From positions 25,507 to 89,506 of the forward strand of contig WOVA01000016.1 of the NCBI GenBank assembly GCA_009773155.1: DNA of 64,000 nt, written 5' to 3'. The notes beneath the pieces are model-generated. The model had not been told where the DNA came from and did no database searches. It saw nothing but the letters and a program-made list of their open reading frames with translations. Position 1 is the stretch's first letter, and each line of letters begins with the position of its first letter. This document shows, in pieces, positions 11,301-63,003 of this stretch. Both the position numbers and the translations under genes were made by a program. Origin of the DNA: Elusimicrobiota bacterium. Its GTDB lineage: Bacteria > Elusimicrobiota > Elusimicrobia > Elusimicrobiales > UBA9959.

Positions 11301-11335
11301 CCCGGAAAATAGAGGGGGCGGCCGGAGGCGGTACC

Positions 11336-11398
11336 GGGACACCATGCCGCATGGTGTCCCCCGCTGATACACCATGCCGCATGGTGTCCCCCGCTGAT
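11336..11398. repeat. GGGACACCATGCCGCATGGTGTCCC palindrome, tandem pair (30-nt unit x2)
   Basis: The unit acaccatgccgcatggtgtcccccgctgat occurs at 11339-11368 and again at 11369-11398, in the eno-ftsB spacer. Confidence 0.9.
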
Positions 11399-11417: not shown

Positions 11418-12704
11418 TTACTTCTTGAAGCGGAAGGCCGCGTCCTTGGCGTACCTGGCCTTCTTGCCCAGCTCCTCCTCGATGCGGATGAGCTGGTTGT
11501 ACTTGCAGAGGCGCTCGCTGCGGCACGGCGCGCCCGTCTTGATGGCGCCGGCGTTGACGGCGACGGCGAGGTCCGCTATGAAGGCGTCCTCGGTCTCGCC
11601 CGAGCGGTGAGAGATCACGGTGGCGTAATCGGCCTCGTGCGCCATATTGATGACGCGAATGGTCTCGGTCAGCGAGCCGATCTGGTTGAGCTTGATGAGG
11701 ATGGCGTTGGCGATGTCCTCCTCGATGCCCCGCTTGAGGCGCTCGGGGTTGGTGACGAATAGGTCGTCGCCGACGATGCGGGCTTTCTTGCCCAGCTGCT
11801 TGGTGAAATGCTCCCAGCCTTCCCAGTCGTCCTCGGCCAGCGGGTCCTCGTAGGAGATGATCGGAAAATGCTTCTTCCAGTCCGCGTAGCGGGCCGTCAG
11901 CTGCTCGGCCGTCAGGTTGGCGCCCTCGAACATATAGCTGCCGTTCTTGTAGAACTCGCTGGCGGCGGAGTCGAAGGCTATCTGCACTTCCTTGAACGTG
12001 TAGCCGGCCTCCCTGATGGCCTTCGCGATGGTCTCGATCACGGCCTCGTGGGTGAAGATCTTGGGGGCGAAGCCGCCTTCGTCGCCGACCGCCGTGGTAT
12101 AGCCGCCCTTGGAGAGGATGGCCTTGAGCGTGTGGTAGACTTCCGCGCCCACGCGGATGGCGTCGGAGAACCTGGCCGCGCCCGTCGGGACGATCATGAA
12201 CTCCTGTATGTTGATGCCGCTGTCGGCGTGCTTGCCGCCGTTGACGATGTTGAGCATCGGGGCGGGCAGCAGGAAGTCCTTGTGCTTTATGCCGTAGGCC
12301 TTGCGGATATAGGCGTAGAGCGGCAGCCTGGCCGACTGCGCGGCCGCGCGGGCCAGCGCCATGGAGACGGAGAGGATGGCGTTGGCGCCCAGCTTGCTCT
12401 TGGTCTGCGTGCCGTCGAGCTCTATCATCTGGTCGTCGATCTTCTCCTGCTCGGCCTTGAGCCCGATGAGCTCGGGGGCGATGAGCCTGGTGACGTTCTC
12501 GACGGCTTTGAGCACGCCCTTGCCGCGGTAGCGCTTGCCGCCGTCGCGCAGTTCCAGCGCCTCGTGGGTGCCGGTGGAGGCGCCGCTGGGAACGGCGGCG
12601 CGGCCGAAGGAGCCGTCGGCCAGCAGCACGTCGGTCTCCACCGTGGGAAAGCCGCGGGAATCGAGTATCTCGCGGGAGACTATTTTTTTGATCTTGGCGT
12701 CCAT
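11418..12704 (-). CDS. eno: Enolase
   Basis: Full-length enolase ([13 protein letters not shown]..., [20 protein letters not shown]). Confidence 0.97.
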
Positions 12705-14238: not shown

Positions 14239-14363
14239 GCCATGAAATATAGCAAAAAACCTTTTTGAAAGCAAAAAAGAGAGCATGGCCCGGAATTTTG
14301 GATATAATATGTCTGAATGCACCATAAGAACGCCTTTCTGGTCCTGGGCCGACTGGGGGAGCG

Positions 14364-14819
14364 GTGAACAAGCGTCTCTCATCCAAGGCGACGCAGTACC
14401 TGCTGGACGCCTCCAACTTCGCGCGCCGTTTTCCCGGCGGTCATGGGTTCTCGGCGGACCTGGCGGAGGCCGAGTTCCTGGGCTGGATAGAGGATTTGAC
14501 CGGCCTGCCGGCCTTCGCCTCCTCCGGCTTCAGGGTCTATTTCGACGGGCCTTTCCGGGAGCTGCGGTTACGGGGACACCATGCCGCATGGTGTCCCCGT
14601 AACCGGGACCAGGTCAGCGTGACTTTCAACGAGGGGCGCACCGCCGACGAAGCGCTGCTGGAGACCGGGGAATTCCTGCTTTCCTGCGGCGTGCGCGCGC
14701 TGCTGGTCACCTCGGACAGGGGGCTGCAGTCGGCGGCCGGGGTGCGCGGCATCGGCTGGCTGAGCTGCGAGGATTTCTACAAGTTATGCCGTGCCGAGCT
14801 GCGCCGGGAAAGCCGTTGA
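14364..14819 (+). CDS. YacP/Rae1-like NYN-domain protein carrying an in-frame palindrome insertion
   Basis: Blocks align by eye with B. subtilis YacP: YLLDASNF / LLVDGYN, VYFDG / VVFDA, VSVTFNEGRTADE / VEVIFTKENETADE, LVTSD / VATSD. GTG start. Confidence 0.6.
   Translation: MNKRLSSKATQYLLDASNFARRFPGGHGFSADLAEAEFLGWIEDLTGLPAFASSGFRVYFDGPFRELRLRGHHAAWCPRNRDQVSVTFNEGRTADEALLETGEFLLSCGVRALLVTSDRGLQSAAGVRGIGWLSCEDFYKLCRAELRRESR
14566..14604. repeat. 39-bp perfect palindrome of the GGGGACACC family, inside the NYN-domain CDS
   Basis: ggttacggggacaccatgc-c-gcatggtgtccccgtaacc. It spans 13 codons, roughly the RLRGHHAAWCPRNR stretch. Confidence 0.92.
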
Positions 14820-15041
14820 AAATGATAGAATCTGTCCTGTATCGCGTATAACCCGCGCGAATACCTTCGTAGTGAGCGCGGGTTCCTCTCAGGAGGGGTT
14901 CAGTGAATTTTCCACGTCTCTGATGGCGCGGAAAATTCACGACGATGAAATGGGGAACCTGGGTTCCCCTTGTAGAAGGGCCGAGCGGAGTATTCCTTTC
15001 GGAGCGAGGATCACCCGACCGAAGGGAGGGCCCGGAAGAGA

Positions 15042-15125
15042 GCCCGGGTGCTGTAACTGGTAGCCAGAGCTGACTTAAAATCAGCTGGAGTATCCTCCGT
15101 GCGGGTTCGAGTCCCGCCCCGGGCA
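15042..15125 (+). tRNA. tRNA-Leu (anticodon TAA)
   Basis: Hand fold: acceptor GCCCGGG/CCCGGGC, anticodon stem GCTGA/TCAGC with loop CTTAAAA, long variable arm (GGAG/CTCC), T-arm GCGGG-TTCGAGT-CCCGC, discriminator A. Confidence 0.9.
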
Positions 15126-20404: not shown

Positions 20405-20471
20405 TATTATATGATAGCAAAAAGGGAAAACCCCGGTTTTGCCGGGGTTTTCGGCGCGGCCGCGGCCGAAC

Positions 20472-20497
20472 GGGGCACCATGCCGCATGGTGTCCCC
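20472..20497. repeat. GGGGACACC-family palindrome copy (intergenic, tmk / rpoN-like divergent spacer)
   Basis: ggggcaccatgccgcatggtgtcccc. The left arm lacks one A. It is followed by ccccgatgccgg, as in the 50.5 kb copy. Confidence 0.8.
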
Positions 20498-29109: not shown

Positions 29110-29485
29110 ACCCAAAGTTATTATCCCGTCGACCGAAGTCCCCGGCGAATCCATACGCGCGCTCGAGGAGACCCTGAACGCGCTCAAGGGCGAACTGGAG
29201 AAGGCCAGGCTCGAGAGCGAATCCTTCAAGACCCGCGTCAGCGGCCTCGAGGAGCGGCTTAAGACCGCGCCCAGGCCCTCGGCGCCTGCCGTCAGGCCCG
29301 CGGCCCCGGCCCCCGCGCCGGCGGCCAGGCGTTCCTACGAGGCGCAGAAAGGCGATACGCTGCAGAGCGTCGCCGAGAAAGTCTACGGCGACGCCTCGCG
29401 CTGGCCGGAGATCTACAGGGCCAACGCCGCGTCGCTCGGCCGCGGCGGAGAAGTGAAGCCCGGCCAGGTCCTGGTCATCCCCTGA
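29108..29485 (+). CDS. Coiled-coil + LysM domain reading frame without a start codon (probable frameshifted 3-prime part of the preceding gene)
   Basis: The +1 frame is open from 28868 to TGA 29483-29485 and encodes ...IRALEETLNALKGELEKARLESESFKTRVSGLEERL...YEAQKGDTLQSVAEKVYGDASRWPEIYRANAASLGRGGEVKPGQVLVIP (LysM). No in-frame ATG, GTG or TTG occurs before the domain. Confidence 0.6.
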   Translation, partial: EPKVIIPSTEVPGESIRALEETLNALKGELEKARLESESFKTRVSGLEERLKTAPRPSAPAVRPAAPAPAPAARRSYEAQKGDTLQSVAEKVYGDASRWPEIYRANAASLGRGGEVKPGQVLVIP

Positions 29486-29619
29486 CCGGGACCGAGGCCG
29501 GCGCTTTATCAGGGATTTCCCTTTTTAGTAACATTTGCGAAACACGCCGGGTGTAAATTATAGGCGCCGGTACTCCGCCCCGCCGGCGGCAAGGACGGGG
29601 CAGGTGCGGAAGAAAGCAA

Positions 29620-29642
29620 GGACACCATGCGGAATGGTGTCC
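29620..29642. repeat. GGACACC-family palindrome copy upstream of the giant coiled-coil gene
   Basis: ggacaccat-gcgga-atggtgtcc, about 40 nt before ATG 29682. Confidence 0.75.
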
Positions 29643-29681
29643 CCACCCGGCGGAACGATGTTTTTTTTACGGACTTTAACT

Positions 29682-32600
29682 ATGAACGACAAATGGGACG
29701 AATCTTCGCTTAACGAGCAGGCGATAACCGACCTGGAGACGGCCAAGCTCGCGCTGCGCTGGGCGCTGGACAAGCTCCGCGCCAACCAGGAAGAGTCGCT
29801 CAAATCCCGCCAGACGCTGCAGGAGAAAGCCTCGCAGGTCTCCTTCCTCGAGAACCAGGTCAAGGCCAAGAACGCCGAGATGGAGCGGCAGCAGCGCGCG
29901 CAGGAGGAGGAGATCAAGTCCCGCCAGGAGAGCCTGGAGTACCAGTTCAGGTCCCGCCTGGAGCGCCTGACCGAGCGCGAGAAGGAACTCGAGGATAACG
30001 CCGCGAAGCTGGAGGGCTCCTTCAAGGCCCGCGAGCAGAAGCTCACCGACGACTTCCAGAAAAAATCCGAGGAACTGCGCGGCCGCTGGGGCCAGGTGGA
30101 GGCCGAGATCTGGCAGCTGCGCCAGGAGCAGCTGGCCAAGCAGCAGGAGTTCGAGAAGCTTTACGCCGAGCGCCTCTCGGCCGAGCAGAAGCGCGCCCGG
30201 GAAGAGTCGGAGAACTCCCGCGCGGAGATGGAGAGAAATTACGGGTCCCGCGTGCAGGAGCTGGAGAAGCGCGAGCACACGCTGGGCGAGGAGCTCAAGA
30301 AACAGGAAGCGGTGATGAAGTGGGCCCGCGACAGCTGGCAGAAGGACGCCGACGAGCGGGAGAAGAAGCTCAAGGTCCGCGAGCTGGAGATAGAGAAGAA
30401 ACTGCTCGAGAAAGAGCAGGAGATAGACGATTACAAGGTCAAACTGGGCCTGCTCAACAAACAGCTGACCGACCTGCCCGAGGCCGTGCGCAAGCGCGAC
30501 GAGGAACTGGAGCGCTACCGCGGCGCGCTGGACAGCCTGGAAGGCGTGATCAGGACCCTGGAAGGGGAGAAGAGAGCCCTCGCCCAGGATTCCGATTCCA
30601 GGCAGTCCCGCCTGGCCGAGGCGCTCGAGGCCGAGAAGGCCCGTTTCAAGGACCTCGAGAACGAGATCCCCAGGCGCCTCAAGATAGCCATAGAGCACGA
30701 GCGCGCCCGGCTGCAGGAGAAGGTCTCCGAGGTGGAGAAGAACTTCGGCCTGGACCTGCGCAAGAAGCAGGAAGAGGCGGACTACCTCGAGCGCAATCTC
30801 AAAACTTTCGAGGAGACCATAAAGACCCTGCAGGCCGAGCGCGAAGGGTTCGCGCAGAAGACCGAGCAGCTGCAGACCCAGCTCAATATCCGCTCCGAGG
30901 AGACCTCCTTCCGCGAGCGGCAGCTGCAGTCGGAGTACGAGGTCCGCCTCAGGGTGGAGCTCGAGAAGCAGAGCCGCGGCCTGCGCTCGGAGATAGAGAC
31001 CGCGCAGCGCATCTACGAGGACAATCTGCGCCTCAAGATCGAGGAGATCGCCCACCTGCGCAAGGAGATGGAGACCCTGGCCGGCGAGAAGTCCGACCTG
31101 TCCTCCTCCTCCTCCGAGCTGCGCCGCCAGGTGGAGGCCCAGAAGGATAAGTACGAGCGCGACCTGGCCTCGACCAGGGCCGCCCTCAAGGAGAGCCACG
31201 ACGCCGAGCTGGGCCGCCGCATGGAGGAGGAAACGGCGAAGCACGAGCAGGCCCGCGCGGCGCTGCAGAAGGATTTTTCCGCCCAGCTGGAGGGCCTCAA
31301 CCTTATAGTCGCCGAGCGCGAGGCGGAGCTCAACCGGTTCAAGAACGAGGTCCAGCGGATGTCCGCCGAAAAGGCCGAGGCTATTGCGCGGGAGAAGGAC
31401 AAGGCGCGCCAGGACCTGGAGCTGCAGGCGAAGGCGTTCGCCGAGACCGAGAAGATATACCAGGAGAAGCTGCAGCAGTCCGCGCGCAATATCGAGGCCG
31501 TCCGCGTCGAGAAGGAAGAGACCATACTGCGCGAGAAGGACCGCCTCGAGCGTATCTACGCCGAGCGCGAGAAGGATTACGAGGATCAGCTGGCCCGCAG
31601 GGACCAGGAGGTCGTGCGGCTGCGCGAGGACCTGCTAAAGTCGGCCCATGAGCGGGAGACGGTTCTTCGCGAGGTTTCGGCGGAGCGCGACGCGCTGCGC
31701 CAGAAGCTCAGGGAAGCGCATGACGCCGCCGCCCGTGCGGAAGCGCTCAAAGAACTGGAACTGGAGCGCGCCCGCCAGGCCGAGAAGGACAAGTCGGCCG
31801 ACATCCTCGACAAGCGCGACAAGGAGCTGGCCGCGCTGGCAAGGACCAAGGACGAGCAGGACGCCGCCTACCGCCGCTCGCTGGAGGATTTCCGGGCCAG
31901 GCTCTCCGAAGCCGTGGGCAAGATGGAAGAGCTTAAGGCCGTGGCCGAGGAACGCCAGACCCGCGTCTCCGCGCTGCAGGTGGAGATCTCCGAGGCCAGG
32001 CGCCAGCATAACGACGAGCATATGGCGGTGTCCGGCCGGCTGGCCGACAGGGAAAAGCAGCTCAAGTCCCTGCGGATGGACTATGATTCGCTCAAGGCCA
32101 ATTCGGCGGCCGTCACCCAGGAGTCGCAGAAGCAGATTGGCGAGGCGCTGATGCGTCTCAAGGCCGCCGAAGAGCACCGCGGCGCTTCCGAGAAGGCTCT
32201 TTCCGAAAGCCGGCGCGAGATAGATATGCGCAGGGTAGAGCTTTCCAAGAAAGAGGACGAACTGCTAAAGCTGCACTCCGACCTGGAGAGCTCGCGCAAC
32301 TCCGCAGCCCGGACAGTGGAGGAATCGCGCGGCCGCGAAACTTCCCTCAAGAGCCGGCTGGAGGTGCTCGAGTCCGAGCTGGCCGGCCGCTCTTCGCTGG
32401 CGTCGGACCTTACCGCCGAGCTGAAAGCGCGCAACGCCGAGCTTTCAAAGGCGGGGGAAGAGAAGTCCCGCCTGGAGCAGGAGCTCAACGTCAGGCTCTC
32501 GGAATTCAAGCAGCAGCTTGAGTCGGAGCGCAAGGAGTTCCGCCTGTCCTACGAGCGGCTCAACCGCGAATTCGCCGACCGGGAAAAGGCCCTGATCGGG

Positions 32601-36063: not shown

Positions 36064-37236
36064 ATGGCCAAGATACTGATCGTCGACGACGAACCAGACA
36101 TGAGGCTGGCGATAAAGAACGTCCTGCGCCTGAGGGGGCACGAAGTCTCCGAGGCCCAGGACGGTCCGTCCGCGCTGGCCGCGCTGGAGGGCGAGAAGCC
36201 CGACCTGGTCCTGCTCGACATCAGGCTGCCCGGCATGGACGGCATAGAGCTGCTGGAGCGCATACGCAAGATGAGCCGCTCCCTGCCGGTGGTGATGATA
36301 ACCGGGTACGGCCACATACAGTCGGCCGTCGACGTGATGAAGCTCGGAGCCAACGAGTACCTGCAGAAACCTTTCGAGAACTCGCAGCTGGTGGATACTG
36401 TGAAGCGCTTCACTTCCGGGCGCAAGCCCGCGCCGGCGGCCGCCGCAGGGGACATCCCGCCTCATGATGGCGGGGACGCCATGCCGCAGGGCGTCGCCAA
36501 ACCTCTCTTTACCCCGGCCAGGCTGCTGGCCCTGGCCGCCGCCGCCGCCGCCCTGCTTCTTTTTTTCCGCTGGTCCGACGGCCGGCGCAATTACGCCGCG
36601 GCTTACGAGTCGGCCGGGGCCAACGTGTCATCCCTGGTCTGGCGCGGCGGGGACCTCTGGGTCTCCGACTGGCTGGAGCAGAGCCTCTACCGCTACGCGC
36701 CGCGCGGCGGCAAGCTCGCCCTTGCCGAGAAAGTCGCGCTGCCGGGCACCCATATCACCGGCTTCGCCTTCGGCGACGACGCCCTCTACATCTGCGATTC
36801 CTGGGCCGGCGTGGTGCAGGAACGTACGCTGGAGAAGGGGTTCCCGGTGGCCAGGAACCACGACCTGCCGGGCAAGATAACCTCGCTTTTCTTTGACGGC
36901 AAATATCTCTGGACCTGCGATTCGGAGGGCGTGGTCTCGCGCCGGAGGACCGGGGAAGACCTGCCGGTGGAGGCGGAGTTCCGGCTGGCGCATAAGCCCG
37001 ACCAGATCTATAAGGACTCCGGCGCCTTCTGGTCGGTGGTCTCCTCGAGCGGCAGGCTCTACCGCCACCGGCTCGACGACAAACTTTCGGTGGAGGCGGT
37101 CTTTACGGCCGGCGACCCCGGCGCCGACAGGCCCCTGTCGGCCTTTACCTGGAGCAAGGGCAGGCTCTGGCTGGCCAGGGAGGGCGGCAAGAGCATAGGG
37201 GAGTACGGCCCCGGGATATTGAAAGAAACCGACTGA
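36064..37236 (+). CDS. Response-regulator receiver fused to a TM helix and a C-terminal beta-propeller-like repeat domain
   Basis: REC (KILIVDDEPDMR...DLVLLDIRLPGMDG...KLGANEYLQKPF), TM LLALAAAAAALLLFF, then five repeats of the type [LF].W..G.LW..D (SLVWRGGDLWVSDW, ALYICDSW, YLWTCDSEG, AFWSVVSSSG, RLWLAREGG). Confidence 0.85.
   Translation: MAKILIVDDEPDMRLAIKNVLRLRGHEVSEAQDGPSALAALEGEKPDLVLLDIRLPGMDGIELLERIRKMSRSLPVVMITGYGHIQSAVDVMKLGANEYLQKPFENSQLVDTVKRFTSGRKPAPAAAAGDIPPHDGGDAMPQGVAKPLFTPARLLALAAAAAALLLFFRWSDGRRNYAAAYESAGANVSSLVWRGGDLWVSDWLEQSLYRYAPRGGKLALAEKVALPGTHITGFAFGDDALYICDSWAGVVQERTLEKGFPVARNHDLPGKITSLFFDGKYLWTCDSEGVVSRRRTGEDLPVEAEFRLAHKPDQIYKDSGAFWSVVSSSGRLYRHRLDDKLSVEAVFTAGDPGADRPLSAFTWSKGRLWLAREGGKSIGEYGPGILKETD
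36472..36498. repeat. Degenerate GGGGAC-family palindrome inside the response-regulator linker
   Basis: ggggacgccatgccgcagggcgtcgcc (arms gacgcc/ggcgtc) encodes GDAMPQGVA between the REC domain and the TM. Confidence 0.5.
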
Positions 37237-37898: not shown

Positions 37899-37970
37899 TG
37901 CGCCCGGCGCGATTCGAACGCGCGGCCACCCGCTTAAAAGGCGGATGCTCTACCACTGAGCTACGGGCGC
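37899..37970 (-). tRNA. tRNA-Lys (anticodon TTT)
   Basis: Hand fold of the reverse complement: GCGCCCG-TA-GCTC-AGTGGTA-GAGC-A-TCCGC-CTTTTAA-GCGGG-TGGCC-GCGCG-TTCGAAT-CGCGC-CGGGCGC-A. Confidence 0.92.
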
Positions 37971-37975
37971 ATATT

Positions 37976-38066
37976 GGGGACGTTGTTTAGTTGTTTAGTT
38001 TTCCGTCCGGGTGGACGGATACGGGTTTCCTGCCTCCCGAAAACTAAACAACTAAACAACGTCCCC
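37976..38066. repeat. Long-hairpin palindromic element, copy 2 (28-bp arms, about 35-nt loop)
   Basis: ggggacgttgtttagttgtttagttttc ... gaaaactaaacaactaaacaacgtcccc. It differs from copy 1 by a C-to-G change in the left arm and the complementary G-to-C change in the right arm. The loop is unrelated to the copy 1 loop. Confidence 0.85.
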
Positions 38067-38089
38067 ACTGATTATACAAAAATTGTAGA

Positions 38090-46502: not shown

Positions 46503-49313
46503 CTGTCACACAGCCGCAAGCTATTTTATGCCCTGACGCTGGCGCTCCTCTGCCCGGCCGCGGCCCTGGCCGACAATAAGGTCATAATCAGGGACTTCGA
46601 CTGGAAGGTCTATTCCACCGACCATTTCGACGTCCATTATTACGCCGAGTCCGAGGGTTGGCACCGCTTCGCCGCCGCCGTGCTGGAGGACGCCTACCGG
46701 ACCACCGGGCTCTCGCTCAACCCCAAACTGGACAAGCGCATTCCCTTCTTCCTCTACGCCTCCATAAACGACATGCAGCAGTCCAATATCGCCGATACCG
46801 GCGACGGCGTGGGCGGCGTGACCGAGGCCTTCAAGGACCGCTTCATGGTCTGGTCGGACGGCTCGCGCGAATGGCTGGAGGACGTCATCCGCCACGAATT
46901 CGCCCACGAGGTGCAGTTCAGCCTGCTTATCGACGGTTTCTGGAAGTCCGCACGCATACTCAAGCTCTACATCTACCCGCTCTGGATGATGGAGGGCATC
47001 GCGGAGTACGCGACCGGCGACCGCGACCTGGCCGTGGAGGAGATGTATATACGCGACGCGGCCGCCGACGGGCGCCTGACCGAGCTGTGGAGGCTCAACC
47101 AGTTCTCCCACCTCAAGCCCCACCAGGTGACCTACGCCTACAAGCTCGGCGGCCAGGCGGTGCGTTTCCTCGCTGAGCAGTACGGCGAAGACCGCGTGGG
47201 CAGGATGCTGGAGCTCTATCGCACCCGCTACGACGCCTCGTCGGTGCTGCTGCCGCTGGTCGGGGCCGACATCTTCGGGTTCGACAGCAGGTTCCGCGAG
47301 CGCACCACCCAGAAGTTCCTGGCCCAGGCGGAGCGCGAGGGGTTGCGCGGGCCGGAGGCCTGGGCCCCGCCGCGCACCGCCAACAAATATCCGGGTATAC
47401 CGGAGTTCAACCTCAGCCCCGCCCGCGCGGCGGGGACGCTGGCCTGGCTCTCTACGGAAGAAGGCCATCCGCCCGTGGTGAAGGCGCTCCGGCCCGGCGA
47501 TAAAAAAGCGCGGGTCCTGCGCGGCCTCTCCGCCGGCGCGGAGAACATCCCCTACGGCCGCTTCACCAAGCCGCTGCGTTCGCTCTCGCTCTCTCCGGAC
47601 GGGCGCTGGGCCGTTTTTTCCGGCCAGCGCAACCACCGCGAGGGTATTTACGCCTGGGACCTGGAGACCGGCCGCTCGGCGCGCCTGGGCCCCGAAGGCC
47701 TGGAGGAAACCCGCCAGCCGCATTTTTCCCCCGACGGGAAGCGGCTGGTCTTCGTCGGCATGAAAGGCGGCTTCAACGACCTCTACGAGATGGATTTCCA
47801 CGGCCTGGAAAAAGTGCGGGCCGCGCGCCGGCTGACCGAAGACCGGGACGACGAGTCCTCGCCCACCTTCGCGCCGGACGGTGCGATATACTTCTCCTGC
47901 GAATTGCCGGTCTCGTCGGCGCCCGTCCGGGGTCTCTGCTCGCTGGCGCCGGGGGGAGAGAAGAAAGTCGAGCTGACGCTGGACGGCAGCGTCTACGATC
48001 CTGCGGTCTCGCCCGACGGCTCCAGGGTTATCTTCACCTGCGACAGGGAGAATATCTTCGACCTCTACGAGTACGAGCCGGCCTCGGGCGCGGTGACCCG
48101 GCTGACGCGCTCGCTGGGCGGCTCCTTCACCCCTTCCTACGGCGAAGGGGGGGAGATAGTCTTCGCGGCCTTCCGCGGCGGCGAGATGAACGTCCATTCC
48201 GGCCCCCGTGAAAATTTCCTCTCCGAGGTCGTAGTGCCGCCGGCAGACGGTACGGGGACACCATGCGCCATGGTGTCCCTTCCTGATGCCTTCGGCGTAT
48301 ACCGGCCCTACCGCTTCAGAGCCTCCACGGACCTGTTCTTCCCGGCCTTCCTGTTCTCCTCGCCCGGCGGGCTTTTCTGGATGAACTACTGGCAGGCCTC
48401 CGACATGCTGGGCGACCACAAGGCCGGGCTCTTCCTCACCTATAATTCCGGCGCTCCCTACCTCAGTTACCAGTTCGACTACACCTACGGCCCGCACAGG
48501 ACGCGGTTCTATTTCTCGGCTGCGGGCCTGTCCTCCGAAGGGAACAAGGACGCGCTGTCGCTGGAATACGACAAGCGCTGGTCGAGGCAGATAGCGGGCG
48601 CCTCGTATCCTTTCGACCGCTATAACGGCGCCCTGCTCTATCTGATACGCAAGAATGAGAAGACCGAATACACCGACGTAGACTATGCCTACAGGAACGA
48701 CGTGCGCGCGGCGCAGCTGGCTTACTTCCGCGACACCGCCAACGGCGTCTACCTGCTGGCCAACCGCGGCTCGCGCCTGCAGCTGAGCTGGATAAAAGCC
48801 GTCGAAAAGTTCGGCGGCAACAGGCGCTACGACGCCTATGTCGGCGAGCTGACCAAATTCTTCCCGCTGAGCAAGCAGGCCACGCTGGTCAACCGCCTTT
48901 TCGCGGCCGAGAGCTTCGGCCGGGACCGCGACGCTTTCGACTACGGCGGCCTGTCCGGCGTGCGCGGCTACGCCCGCCGCAACGGGGCCAACGAGGCCGG
49001 GCGGGTGCTGGTCAACAACCTGGAGTGGCGCTTCCCTCTCTTCGAGGACCTCAACTATTATATGTGGTATATGTTCCCCGATTTTTATTTCAAGACCATC
49101 TTCGCCAAGGTTTTCGTCGACTCGGCCGTCCCGCTTCAGCCCCAGGGGTCCTGGCGGTTCAGCGCGGACGACGCGATAACTTCCGTGGGTTTCGGCGTGA
49201 ACGTGCACACCTTCATCCTGCAGGCTTTCCCGCTGGTGCTGAGCCTGGATTACGCGCGCCGGCTGGACGACGGAGGGTACATAGTGTATTTCTACCTGGG
49301 CCCGCTTTTCTGA
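46503..49313 (+). CDS. Composite outer-membrane protein: HExxH peptidase-like module + PD40/TolB-like propeller repeats + Omp85/BamA-like C-terminal barrel (start uncertain, possibly CTG)
   Basis: VIRHEFAHEVQF (HExxH), PD40 repeats (SPDGRWAVFSG, FSPDGKRLVF, FAPDGAIYF, VSPDGSRVIF), and the barrel end ...IVYFYLGPLF. The signal-peptide-like SHSRKLFYALTLALLCPAAALA is encoded in-frame upstream of the first ATG (46680). The only in-frame candidate start there is CTG 46503. Confidence 0.8.
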   Translation: MSHSRKLFYALTLALLCPAAALADNKVIIRDFDWKVYSTDHFDVHYYAESEGWHRFAAAVLEDAYRTTGLSLNPKLDKRIPFFLYASINDMQQSNIADTGDGVGGVTEAFKDRFMVWSDGSREWLEDVIRHEFAHEVQFSLLIDGFWKSARILKLYIYPLWMMEGIAEYATGDRDLAVEEMYIRDAAADGRLTELWRLNQFSHLKPHQVTYAYKLGGQAVRFLAEQYGEDRVGRMLELYRTRYDASSVLLPLVGADIFGFDSRFRERTTQKFLAQAEREGLRGPEAWAPPRTANKYPGIPEFNLSPARAAGTLAWLSTEEGHPPVVKALRPGDKKARVLRGLSAGAENIPYGRFTKPLRSLSLSPDGRWAVFSGQRNHREGIYAWDLETGRSARLGPEGLEETRQPHFSPDGKRLVFVGMKGGFNDLYEMDFHGLEKVRAARRLTEDRDDESSPTFAPDGAIYFSCELPVSSAPVRGLCSLAPGGEKKVELTLDGSVYDPAVSPDGSRVIFTCDRENIFDLYEYEPASGAVTRLTRSLGGSFTPSYGEGGEIVFAAFRGGEMNVHSGPRENFLSEVVVPPADGTGTPCAMVSLPDAFGVYRPYRFRASTDLFFPAFLFSSPGGLFWMNYWQASDMLGDHKAGLFLTYNSGAPYLSYQFDYTYGPHRTRFYFSAAGLSSEGNKDALSLEYDKRWSRQIAGASYPFDRYNGALLYLIRKNEKTEYTDVDYAYRNDVRAAQLAYFRDTANGVYLLANRGSRLQLSWIKAVEKFGGNRRYDAYVGELTKFFPLSKQATLVNRLFAAESFGRDRDAFDYGGLSGVRGYARRNGANEAGRVLVNNLEWRFPLFEDLNYYMWYMFPDFYFKTIFAKVFVDSAVPLQPQGSWRFSADDAITSVGFGVNVHTFILQAFPLVLSLDYARRLDDGGYIVYFYLGPLF
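48255..48279. repeat. GGGACACC-family palindrome copy inside the Omp85-like CDS
   Basis: gggacaccatg-cgc-catggtgtccc. The extended 46-nt unit 48245..48290 encodes DGTGTPCAMVSLPDA between the propeller and barrel parts. Confidence 0.88.
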
Positions 49314-49340
49314 CCTATGTTTTATGATAAAATCCTAACT

Positions 49341-50420
49341 ATGAAACACATACTGACTTTTATTTCCCCACTGCTCCTGGCGGGCGCTCTCTTTGTCCCG
49401 GCCGCGGCCCAGACCGCGCCGGCAAAAAAAGCCGCCTCGCCGGCCCCCAAAGCCGCCGCGCCGGCCCCAAAAGCCGCCCCCGCGGCCAAGAAGGCGGCCG
49501 CCGCCGCGCCTAAAGCGGCGCCCGCGGTAGCGGCGTCCACCCCTACCCCGAAAACGCCTTTCGAGGAAGCCACGGACAACCTGAAAGCGGCCGACGCCGC
49601 CACCCGCCGCCAGGGCGCCGACGCGCTGGGCCGCCTGCGCGACGGCAAGGCCGAGCCGCTGCTCCTGAAAGCGCTCTCCGACGAGAGCGCGCCGGTCCGC
49701 GCGGCCGCGGCCGACTCTCTGGGCATGCTCAGGTCGCGCGGAGCCGTGCCGGTACTGGCGAAGATGCTGACGGACGACAAGGACCCTTCCGCCAGACAGG
49801 CGGCGGCCATCTCCCTTTCCTATATCGGCGATCCCGCGGCCGGCGACGCGCTGGTGAAAGCGCTCAAGGACGAGGCTCCCGGCGTGCGCTACGCCGCCGC
49901 GCGCACCCTCGGCGTCATCCGCTACGCCAAGGCGGAGGACGCGCTGATAGTTTTCCTCGACGGGAAGGACCTTAATATGCGCCGCGGCGCCGCCGCCACG
50001 CTGGGCCAGCTGCGCTCCGTCAAGGCGCTGGACGGCCTCTACGTCGCGGTCCGCGACGAAGACAGGTTCCTGCGGCTGGAGTCGGTCAAGGCCATAGGAG
50101 AGATAGGCGACAAGGCCGCCGTTCCCGCCCTGTCCAAGGCCCTCGCCGACAAAGACCAGAGCGTGAGCATAGAAGCCGCGCTCGCGCTGGCTAAACTGGG
50201 CAGCGACGAGGGGCTCAAGGCCGCCTACGAACTGATAAAGTCTCCCGAGATGCCCGTAAAGCAGCAGGCGGCTAATGTCATAGCCCTGATGGGCAATGAG
50301 AAGAGCGTTAAGGTCCTCGACGAGGTCTACGCCGCGGAGAAGGACGAGAATTCGAAGATGCTCATAGATTACGCCAGGCAGAGGCTCGCCGCCCGCCTGC
50401 GGCTGCAGAAACAGCAGTAG
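49341..50420 (+). CDS. Secreted HEAT-repeat (PBS-lyase-type) protein with Ala/Pro/Lys-rich N-terminal region
   Basis: Signal peptide MKHILTFISPLLLAGALFVPAAA, an AKKAA/APKAA low-complexity tract, then repeated ..VR..AA.ALG....A.P.L...L.D units. Confidence 0.8.
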   Translation: MKHILTFISPLLLAGALFVPAAAQTAPAKKAASPAPKAAAPAPKAAPAAKKAAAAAPKAAPAVAASTPTPKTPFEEATDNLKAADAATRRQGADALGRLRDGKAEPLLLKALSDESAPVRAAAADSLGMLRSRGAVPVLAKMLTDDKDPSARQAAAISLSYIGDPAAGDALVKALKDEAPGVRYAAARTLGVIRYAKAEDALIVFLDGKDLNMRRGAAATLGQLRSVKALDGLYVAVRDEDRFLRLESVKAIGEIGDKAAVPALSKALADKDQSVSIEAALALAKLGSDEGLKAAYELIKSPEMPVKQQAANVIALMGNEKSVKVLDEVYAAEKDENSKMLIDYARQRLAARLRLQKQQ

Positions 50421-50446: not shown

Positions 50447-50815
50447 ATGGCAAAGAAGTCCCGCAAGCGCGCCAAGGCCGCCCAGGAGAAGGGCGCCGCC
50501 GCGCGCGGCGCGTATTTAACCGGCACGCCCTTAGACGGTACGGGGACGCCATGCGGCAGGGTGTCCCCCGCCGATGCCGGGGGGGAGATAAGCGGCGCGG
50601 GCTGGCTGATAGTGGCCGTTTCGGTCATCACCGCCGTCGTCGGCTACTTCCTGCTCTCCAAAGCCGCTCCCGAAGGCCGCGACCTCTACTCCAATCTCTC
50701 TCCTTTCGTGATCCTGGCCGGCTATATAGGCGTAGCCGTGGGAATAATGTGGCCGGGACGGCGGGGGGAGGGGGAGGAATACCCTGCTTCCGCCGGCGAA
50801 AAGTTCCCGGCCTGA
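50447..50815 (+). CDS. Small hypothetical membrane protein (two TM helices) containing a palindrome-derived segment
   Basis: Basic N-terminus, then two TMs (GWLIVAVSVITAVVGYFLL, FVILAGYIGVAVGIMW). Residues DGTGTPCGRVSPADA are encoded by the repeat. Confidence 0.5.
   Translation: MAKKSRKRAKAAQEKGAAARGAYLTGTPLDGTGTPCGRVSPADAGGEISGAGWLIVAVSVITAVVGYFLLSKAAPEGRDLYSNLSPFVILAGYIGVAVGIMWPGRRGEGEEYPASAGEKFPA
50542..50568. repeat. Degenerate GGGGAC-family palindrome copy inside the small membrane-protein ORF
   Basis: ggggacgccatgcggcagggtgtcccc. By hand alignment, the extended unit 50533..50578 matches 48245..48290 at 39 of 46 positions. Confidence 0.65.
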
Positions 50816-62844: not shown

Positions 62845-62862
62845 ATTAGTCCTTTCCTTTTC

Positions 62863-62953
62863 AATTGGGGACACAATACCTATTTCCCCGCTATTTTTTT
62901 ATGCCTATGCTGTAAGCGTTTTTATGCCTGAAATAGGTATTGTGTCCCCAATT
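62863..62953. repeat. Long inverted repeat (24-bp perfect arms, 43-nt loop) with GGGGAC...GTCCCC core
   Basis: aattggggacacaatacctatttc ... gaaataggtattgtgtccccaatt. The loop carries aggcataaaaa twice. It lies between tRNA-Pro(GGG) and the serpin start. Confidence 0.85.
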
Positions 62954-63003
62954 GGCTCCCAATTGCTCCCCTGTCACTATACAAAAAAGTTCGACCTTCC
63001 TCA

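Follow-up and report, generated by a model that had tools for sequence, protein, structure and literature searches.

The best-known case of palindromic repeats colonising genes in frame is that of Rickettsia, where the behaviour has been tied to intracellular, reductive genomes. Known REPs carry a conserved GTAG or GTGG tetranucleotide beside the foot of their hairpin. Among the abundant short motifs, the USS of the Pasteurellaceae and the DUS of Neisseria have coding copies that are tolerated in particular frames, and inverted pairs of USS/DUS serve as terminators. A review (PMC10969869, section 4.2) notes that the Rickettsia palindromic elements (RPEs) often integrate in frame into genes that are unrelated to one another.

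The locus considered here lies in a stretch of 64,000 nucleotides from an Elusimicrobiota bacterium, hereafter the window, in which a YacP/Rae1-type gene with an NYN domain carries a long palindrome in its reading frame. We think it probable that this palindrome is a copy of a short, multi-copy, selfish hairpin repeat, REP-like in size and RPE-like in behaviour, that was acquired within the coding sequence of the NYN gene. The features of the window are collected in Table 1.

Table 1. Coordinates of the host gene, the palindrome and the other copies of the repeat in the 64-kb window.
Feature	Positions	Strand	Basis or context
Intergenic copy of about 1.7 tandem units, 30-nt period, cores 11335-11361 and 11365-11391	11330..11398		Downstream of enolase (11418-12704, minus strand)
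Host gene, predicted YacP/Rae1-like NYN-domain protein, 151 aa, GTG start	14364..14819	+	Profile, fold and alignment
39-bp perfect palindrome	14566..14604		Locus-specific extended copy of the repeat
27-bp core GGGGACACCATGCCGCATGGTGTCCCC	14572..14598		Part common to all other copies
Intergenic copy flanked by thymidylate kinase (minus) and a sigma-54-like gene (plus)	20471..20497		Corresponding site lacks it in L001, L003 and L107
Diverged copy, 4 mismatches, in the 29110-29700 intergenic region	29618..29644		Core scan
Degenerate core, 4 mismatches, in frame as GGDAMPQGV, linker after the receiver domain of ORF 36064-37236	36472..36498		Core scan
Full unit GGTAC-core-TCCTGATGCC, in frame as DGTGTPCAMVSLPDA, within the 877-aa ORF 46680-49313	48249..48290		Core scan
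Intergenic full unit downstream of the HEAT-repeat gene 49317-50420	50537..50578		Core scan

The 39-mer, ggttacggggacaccatgc-c-gcatggtgtccccgtaacc, is a 19+1+19 palindrome whose 19-nt arms are 100% complementary around C14585; when the flanking c14565 and g14605 are counted, the arms reach 20 nt (20+1+20; 41 bp, 14565-14605). Such a palindrome appeared in none of 100 dinucleotide-preserving shuffles of the window, and the perfect palindrome reported in the initial annotation is real. A single, very stable hairpin is predicted for the sequence as RNA (-38.6 kcal/mol, z = -6.7), and a hairpin is likewise predicted for it as DNA (-24.9 kcal/mol, z = -7.3). In the host ORF, the 39-mer is read as R68-LRGHHAAWCPRN-R81 (R68-L-R-G-H-H-A-A-W-C-P-R-N-R81), in frame and between the conserved blocks VYFDG and VSVTFNEGRTADE, as had been described. 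The accompanying statement that it spans exactly 13 codons is wrong: the palindrome has the length of 13 codons but begins at the second base of codon 68 and, thus, touches 14. Since a palindrome gives the same peptide on the opposite strand, it also produces a spurious minus-strand ORF, 14537-14752. The GTAACC extension of this copy closes one frame per strand, and the NYN gene uses neither of the closed frames.

The host gene appears, by profile and by modelled fold, to encode a divergent YacP/Rae1-like NYN ribonuclease. On its own, the window protein scores under the Pfam cutoff for NYN_YacP (PF05991; E = 0.015, 15.7 bits, cutoff 24.6). A profile built from nine close orthologues gathers 44 cluster representatives among 1.84 billion proteins, and 31 of 41 aligned family members match PF05991 (best E = 1.6e-20). 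The AlphaFold2 (AF2) model of the window protein (mean pLDDT 90.5, pTM 0.85) has as its top matches among solved structures the Rae1/YacP of Bacillus subtilis, 5mq9 and 5mq8 (E = 8e-7, TM 0.68); FEN/PIN-like nucleases come next. When the PDB was searched by sequence with the family profile, no significant match was returned. The family assignment made in the initial annotation holds because of the matches of its relatives and of the Rae1 fold, that is, on transitive and structural evidence. The acidic residues expected of PIN/NYN proteins are kept, namely D15 in YLxDxxN, D61 in FDG, D95 in ADE and D118 in TSD.

The sub-threshold Pfam score of the window protein could be taken to mean that the ORF is a decaying pseudogene, with the possibility that the palindrome is an assembly artefact. 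Against this, the ORF is intact, its four conserved aspartates are in place and its model is confident. Setting the loop aside, dN/dS is 0.12-0.26 for all allele pairs (0.157 between the window and the likewise element-carrying L006, and 0.123 for the recent pair of one filled and one empty allele). Exactly this 151-aa protein is encoded by 6 independent contigs, GCA_009773265.1 WPII01000013.1 among them, which argues against a one-off assembly artefact, and related filled alleles occur in independent metagenomes. The probability of a pseudogene or artefact is negligible, and this explanation is refuted as far as sequence data show. The NYN gene is intact, is under purifying selection and, to judge from its sequence, works; the earlier expectation that the host gene probably remains functional is to that extent borne out.

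The surroundings of the gene differ among relatives. Two additional genes lie between phosphoglucomutase and the NYN gene in L001 (8978-10004), L107 (8993-10028) and L109 (3-759); one encodes about 155-161 aa and the other a weakly AhpC-TSA-like protein of about 188-189 aa, with the NYN start overlapping the second. Both are missing from the window (14239-14363) and from GCA_009773265.1, where the NYN gene follows a 125-nt spacer. Downstream, the 220-nt spacer between the NYN gene and the tRNA at 15042-15125 holds an inverted repeat, GTGAATTTTCC...GGAAAATTCAC, at 14903-14939, which had no Rfam match at the gathering threshold.

Alleles with and without the element can be compared among the nine close orthologues (74-87% identity, from Elusimicrobia MAGs and metagenomes). 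Seven of them are element-free and read ...FDGPFREL-GFPV(R/K)xP-VSVTFNEGR (RELGFPVREPVSV); five of these have 142 aa, and P0009 has 150 aa because of a longer N-terminus. The other two carry the core only, at a gain of 5 aa: P0001 (TamC13-45) reads REL-RGHHSAWCPQDP-VSV and P0003 reads REL-RGHHAEWCPRCP-VSV. The window allele, REL-RLRGHHAAWCPRNRDQ-VSV, is 9 aa longer than the element-free orthologues, and the loop is shorter at the insert position in all 38 element-free members of the family. Orthologues without the palindrome encoding the same residues had been named as evidence against an insertion; none do, the empty alleles reading GFPV.. instead. Since this native sequence is common to the empty alleles and conserved, they are taken to be ancestral.

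At the DNA level, the empty alleles read GA(A/G)CTG-GG(G/C/T)TTCCCGGTC(A/C)(A/G)G...-CCGGT. In P0001 and P0003, 34 nt (AC, the core and 5 nt) replace 19 nt, a net gain of 15 nt. In the window, CGGTTAC, the core and GTAAC (39 nt) replace about 11 nt, and the allele is 27 nt (9 codons) longer on balance; there is an additional 1-nt difference nearby. Thus, the frame is kept because about 11-19 nt of native loop-coding sequence (GFPV..) were replaced. The clean insertion of a 13-codon 39-mer that had been proposed is not supported, and the gap of 13 residues anticipated in an alignment of orthologues is found to be one of 5 or 9.

A filled allele (L004, encoding P0003) and an empty one (L107, encoding P0009) have 94.6% DNA identity and a dS of 0.146, and the window is as far from a filled allele (L006, dS 0.37) as from an empty one (L109, dS 0.38). 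Therefore, the filled alleles do not form one clade in the NYN gene comparison. P0001 and P0003 have the same left junction, GAACT followed by AC-GGGGAC. It is possible either that the NYN site was hit more than once or that a short filled patch moved between lineages by recombination; where distant NYN lineages are filled at one and the same codon, a small piece of the allele could have been transferred laterally, instead of the element inserting repeatedly. The native NYN site, CTGGGGTTCCCGGTCC, resembles the outer bases of the element (GGGG...CCCCGGTACC), and we infer that such a likeness would favour microhomology-guided acquisition. A metagenome scan for further NYN alleles produced one more filled allele of the P0003 type, P0009 again, and one contig that ends just before the site.

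In the AF2 model, the insert occupies residues ~66-83, in the loop that joins strand 2 (55-61) to strand 3 (84-89), so the suggestion that a structural model be consulted for a surface loop has a positive answer. In the model of the empty P0002 (pLDDT 89.7, pTM 0.85), strands and helices follow one another as they do in the window protein, and the sole difference between the two is the loop after the D61 strand, which covers residues 62-74 (13 residues) in the empty protein and 62-83 (22 residues) in the window protein. The insert is modelled as coil, with a mean pLDDT of 87 for residues 61-70 and 76 for residues 71-80. As modelled, the insert lengthens a surface loop and leaves the predicted fold unchanged.

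The full 39-mer occurs once in the window, and its inner 27 bases recur. The recurring unit is thus not the 39-mer but a 27-bp core, GGGGACACCATGC-S-GCATGGTGTCCCC, and the GGTTAC/GTAACC extension is found at the NYN locus only. The window holds 8 copies of the core, about one per 8 kb, starting at 11335, 11365, 14572, 20471, 29618, 36472 (degenerate), 48254 and 50542. The half-site GGGGACACCATGC, with two or fewer mismatches, gives 16 matches in the window against 1.72 expected. The copy downstream of enolase lies inside the loop of a terminator-like hairpin, GGGGCGGCC...GGCCGCCCC. The degenerate core after the receiver domain may be a decayed coding copy, and the linker of the orthologue of its ORF is 7 aa shorter. 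The unit in the 877-aa ORF is in a variable linker between a PD40 beta-propeller and an Omp85-like barrel; tblastn found no orthologue of this ORF among the fetched loci, and its database homologues are only ~50% identical, so the copy there may be either an insertion or a replacement.

These distributions bear on the notion that the hairpin regulates the NYN gene in cis and is particular to it, as a translational pause site or an autoregulatory target of the encoded ribonuclease, selected there for that role. A hairpin as stable as the one predicted would be fitting in such a role, as would the facts that the NYN copy alone has been perfected to arms of 19-20 bp and that the core stands at the same codon in three lineages. 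We nevertheless regard a dedicated regulatory role as very unlikely: the window has the same core at no fewer than seven unrelated positions, numerous unrelated genes outside the window contain it too, and all distant homologues of the NYN gene, like most of the close ones, do without the element.

An Rfam scan returned no family for the hairpin, five tRNAs being the sole matches in the window. The window has other hairpins as well. A terminator-like symmetric one, AAAACCCCGGTTTTGCCGGGGTTTT at ~20420-20455, adjoins the 20471 copy in the gap between thymidylate kinase and the sigma-54-like gene. Three hairpins of ~93 nt (2006-2098, 37975-38067 and 62862-62954) have perfect arms of 25-29 nt that start with GGGGAC; two of them have the arms GGGGACGTTGTTTAGTT(C/G)TTTAGTTTTC in common around unrelated 35-nt centres, and the third has the arms CAATTGGGGACACAATACCTATTTC. 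They appear to lie in 5′ leaders, with RNA minimum free energies of -45 to -63 kcal/mol: one is between a TATAAT-like box and the tRNA at 37899-37970 (minus strand), one is between a TATAGT box and the RBS/ATG near 62846 (minus strand), and one abuts the ATG at 2105. Given their GGGGACAC start, they may be related to the 27-bp core.

Beyond the window, the core is multi-copy in at least 8 Elusimicrobia MAGs, those among the matches listed including TamC13-45, UBA11179, GWB2_63_22, Ess09-09 and binchicken co20_337, co37_74 and co356_8. The scan covered one genome per species and gave at least 100 loci with the core. In 25 of 39 Elusimicrobia copies, the core is part of an asymmetric unit of ~45 nt, (G)GGTAC-N-GGGACACCATGCSGCATGGTGTCCCC-CGCYGATGC(SGC), and the CAZJUL lineage has another flank, AATGCTTGATAC. 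The left flank of the NYN copy is near this consensus (GCGGTTAC versus GGCGGTAC), while its right flank is the inverted left flank, GTAACC, and not CGCYGATGC. None of the other Elusimicrobia copies examined has a symmetric extension of this kind. Most simply read, one flank was copied onto the other and the hairpin thereby lengthened.

The site downstream of enolase provides a second pair of filled and empty alleles. In L107 and L108 it is empty and consists of the terminator-like hairpin GGGGCGGCC-CTCCCCGCGGAA-GGCCGCCCC. In L001, 45 nt of element (a single unit) replace the 12-nt loop, and the window has the same insert in its tandem form, with ACACCATGCCGCATGGTGTCCCCCGCTGAT twice. TamC13-45 has one unit at this site (L093) and the same dimer form at an unrelated locus (L045 5182-5238). 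The alternation of monomer and dimer at one site suggests that copies exchange sequence. A direct target-site duplication is found at neither of the two filled/empty pairs (the NYN gene and the enolase terminator), and no transposition event with clean ends was seen; both comparisons are messy replacements, which leaves the boundaries of the element uncertain. Of two otherwise near-identical contigs, L003 (7377-10815) has a ribonucleotide reductase large subunit of at least 1250 aa that includes an intein with a LAGLIDADG endonuclease, and L001 (16991-19483) has an intein-free gene encoding 830 aa.

About 21 of the 39 Elusimicrobia copies fall within likely genes (long ORFs with high GC3). These calls are heuristic, with GC3 and the length of the ORF as criteria; some may be wrong, and that for the window copy at 29618 is doubtful. 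Six copies have Pfam domains on either side: they are in HypF, three PKS/PUFA-synthase-like proteins, a TPR-Ser/Thr kinase and an AmiC-like amidase. In HypF, the order is acylphosphatase, copy, zinc fingers, which places the copy in an inter-domain linker, and it amounts to a clean gain of 10 aa relative to ten homologues. Together with the window copy at 48254, these cases uphold the view, first put forward for the NYN gene, that the element colonises coding DNA. None of the six frames of the core contains a stop codon, and in the full unit five of the six are open. Coding copies strongly favour one orientation and frame, (A)SAGDTMRHGVPV (~15 of 21), and are mostly read as ASAGDTMRHGVPV in linkers between domains; the frame RGHHAxWCP is used in four coding copies, including that of the NYN gene, and GTPCAMVS in one.

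The recurrence of ASAGDTMRHGVPV in the linkers of unrelated proteins might suggest that the encoded peptide is itself a selected functional module spread by recombination, the DNA palindrome being secondary. This is extremely unlikely, for the same DNA is read in three frames in different genes, giving RGHHAAWCP, GDTMRHGVP or GTPCAMVS, and roughly half of the copies are intergenic. For annotation, repeated peptides such as ASAGDTMRHGVPV and RGHHAAWCP in these MAGs are to be treated as repeat-derived and not as domains.

The core is not confined to Elusimicrobia. It is multi-copy in at least four other MAGs, JACRIR01 (labelled Candidatus Poribacteria) and CAYVDS, CAYVQZ and CAZEBC (labelled 'uncultured bacterium'), all with 54-57% GC. 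In their loci (L008-L103), it is nested in symmetric palindromes of 45-55 bp, whose outer stems vary from copy to copy and stay complementary, as in ggccttaattcg[core]cgaattaaggcc, gcgcttattcg[core]cgaataagcgc and gggttattgg[core]ccaataaccc. A short G-CTTTTC-like run often follows the palindrome in these MAGs, where the copies appear to be mostly intergenic. For the nested palindromes, it could be that the core inserted into hairpins that were already there, that hairpin repair keeps subfamilies palindromic, or that they function as terminators. A TTAA-type palindromic target duplication was considered for the symmetric flanks and rejected, as the variants cttattcg/cgaataag do not fit it; Tn3-like GGGG inverted-repeat ends were rejected as well, there being no 5-bp duplication and no related ends. 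Single matches in other phyla have other loops and are at the chance level for 20 fixed bases in 596 Gb, and a scan of viral contigs gave one copy in one contig. A literature search found no description of the core sequence (unrelated primers only) or of such repeats in Elusimicrobia.

How might such a repeat spread? Close relatives differ in whether they have the repeat at a given orthologous site, and we propose that its spread would act on single-stranded hairpin DNA. The driver could be an HUH/Y1 (RAYT-like) enzyme using the GTAC beside the hairpin foot, or it could be microhomology-mediated template switching or gene conversion from other copies. Replacement without target-site duplication in both filled/empty comparisons is consistent with either option. 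It is tempting to see in the GTAC, one base from the hairpin foot, and in the lack of a duplication something that recalls the single-stranded DNA transposition of REP/RAYT and IS200/IS605; equally speculatively, the replacement junctions and the likeness between the site and the element ends would fit template switching or gene conversion just as well. Coding copies would survive only in loops and linkers, with an open frame and a length change divisible by three, and the GGTTAC/GTAACC arms of the NYN copy would have arisen when a flank was copied across the hairpin by a template switch or by hairpin-templated repair.

Searches for a mobilising enzyme covered 0.88 Mb (the window and the loci, part of the genomes). 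No RAYT-like gene was found there with an approximate probe, and an HUH/Y motif scan of the same DNA gave no match. In loci with two or more copies, only ordinary genes, and no transposase, lie between the paired copies, and no transposase was seen among the window genes scanned.

The 27-bp core is near-identical across MAG lineages despite very different flanks, which is unusual for REP families and could point instead to a conserved binding site. One has to consider whether the core is a genome-wide recognition sequence, the site of a conserved DNA- or RNA-binding protein or something like an uptake signal, that is kept by selection or molecular drive and accumulates by recombination rather than by transposition, with coding copies tolerated in particular frames. 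An almost invariant core combined with lineage-specific flanks speaks for this, as do the strong preference in genes for the frame and orientation giving ASAGDTMRHGVPV, the lack of a transposase in the DNA scanned, and the alternation of monomer and dimer at one orthologous site. Nevertheless, between relatives of 95% identity the gains are insertions or replacements of blocks of 15-45 nt, with no gradual drift towards the motif. Moreover, 27 bp far exceeds the known uptake signals, and we know of no candidate binding protein for the core. On this evidence, accumulation of a recognition sequence by recombination seems unlikely.

The selfish hairpin repeat, which we favour, leaves room for a more specific proposal. 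It is possible, if on balance doubtful, that the core serves as the hairpin recognised by a mobilisation system, that this system has passed horizontally among at least three lineages (Elusimicrobia and two lineages of 54-57% GC labelled 'Poribacteria' or 'uncultured bacterium'), and that it inserts, without target-site duplication, into the loops of hairpins and the linkers of proteins. In Elusimicrobia the system would then act as a generator of linker peptides like the Rickettsia RPEs, with a unit three times smaller and in bacteria that are not intracellular. A core common to lineages with differing flanks is a lead to the enzyme or factor that recognises it. The filled and empty alleles of 95%-identical relatives amount to natural before/after pairs, with which one can address the route by which such elements get into genes, the protein positions at which they are tolerated and the way in which hairpins become perfect.

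Comparison with described repeats places the element between several classes. Like the RPEs, it is palindromic and is found both in intergenic regions and in frame in unrelated functional genes, with the peptide in loops or surface regions (PMC10969869). The RPEs, however, are ~100-150 bp long, AT-rich and found in obligate intracellular alpha-proteobacteria, whereas the Elusimicrobia element has a 27-bp core in a unit of 27-47 nt, is GC-rich and comes from MAGs; no relationship in sequence is expected, and the likeness is one of behaviour and not of family membership. The colonisation of genes seen here is thus RPE-like, by a much shorter GC-rich hairpin and in environmental Elusimicrobia. 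The bacterial MITEs (ERIC, BOX, QMITE1 and Correia) are also non-autonomous inverted-repeat elements, some copies of which are fused in frame (PMC10969869), but they have terminal inverted repeats, a direct target-site duplication and a parent IS, and the element shows no duplication at its two filled/empty pairs.

With the REPs and REPINs (RAYT, IS200/IS605-like Y1), the element has in common a short hairpin of the 20-40 nt class that is known there in hundreds of copies; neither makes a target-site duplication, and both occur at gene 3′ ends and in terminator regions. The GGTAC-N that precedes the core in 25 of 39 copies is in a position analogous to the REP tetranucleotide and differs from it in sequence. 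REPs are, in contrast, extragenic by definition, and about 21 of 39 copies of the element are in likely ORFs, six of them confirmed by Pfam domains on both sides; in addition, the inverted doublets of REPINs are not seen, only the direct 1.7-unit tandem. The USS and DUS resemble the element in being abundant short motifs, many of them genic, with preferred frames and in less constrained protein regions, but they are 9-12 bp long and arise from point mutation and biased uptake, while the element appears and disappears in blocks of 15-45 nt. Finally, IS1397 and ISKpn1 insert into the loops of palindromic units, which recalls the intergenic copy placed precisely within the loop of a terminator-like hairpin that was there before it and, in other lineages, the nesting of the core in copy-specific complementary stems; these are full insertion sequences with a transposase, though, whereas the element is a hairpin only and its loop targeting is seen in a single pair. 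The element therefore fails one defining feature of each class, namely the size and family of the RPEs, the extragenic location of the REPs and the target duplication of the MITEs. In behaviour it is closest to the Rickettsia palindromic elements, and in size and shape to the REPs.
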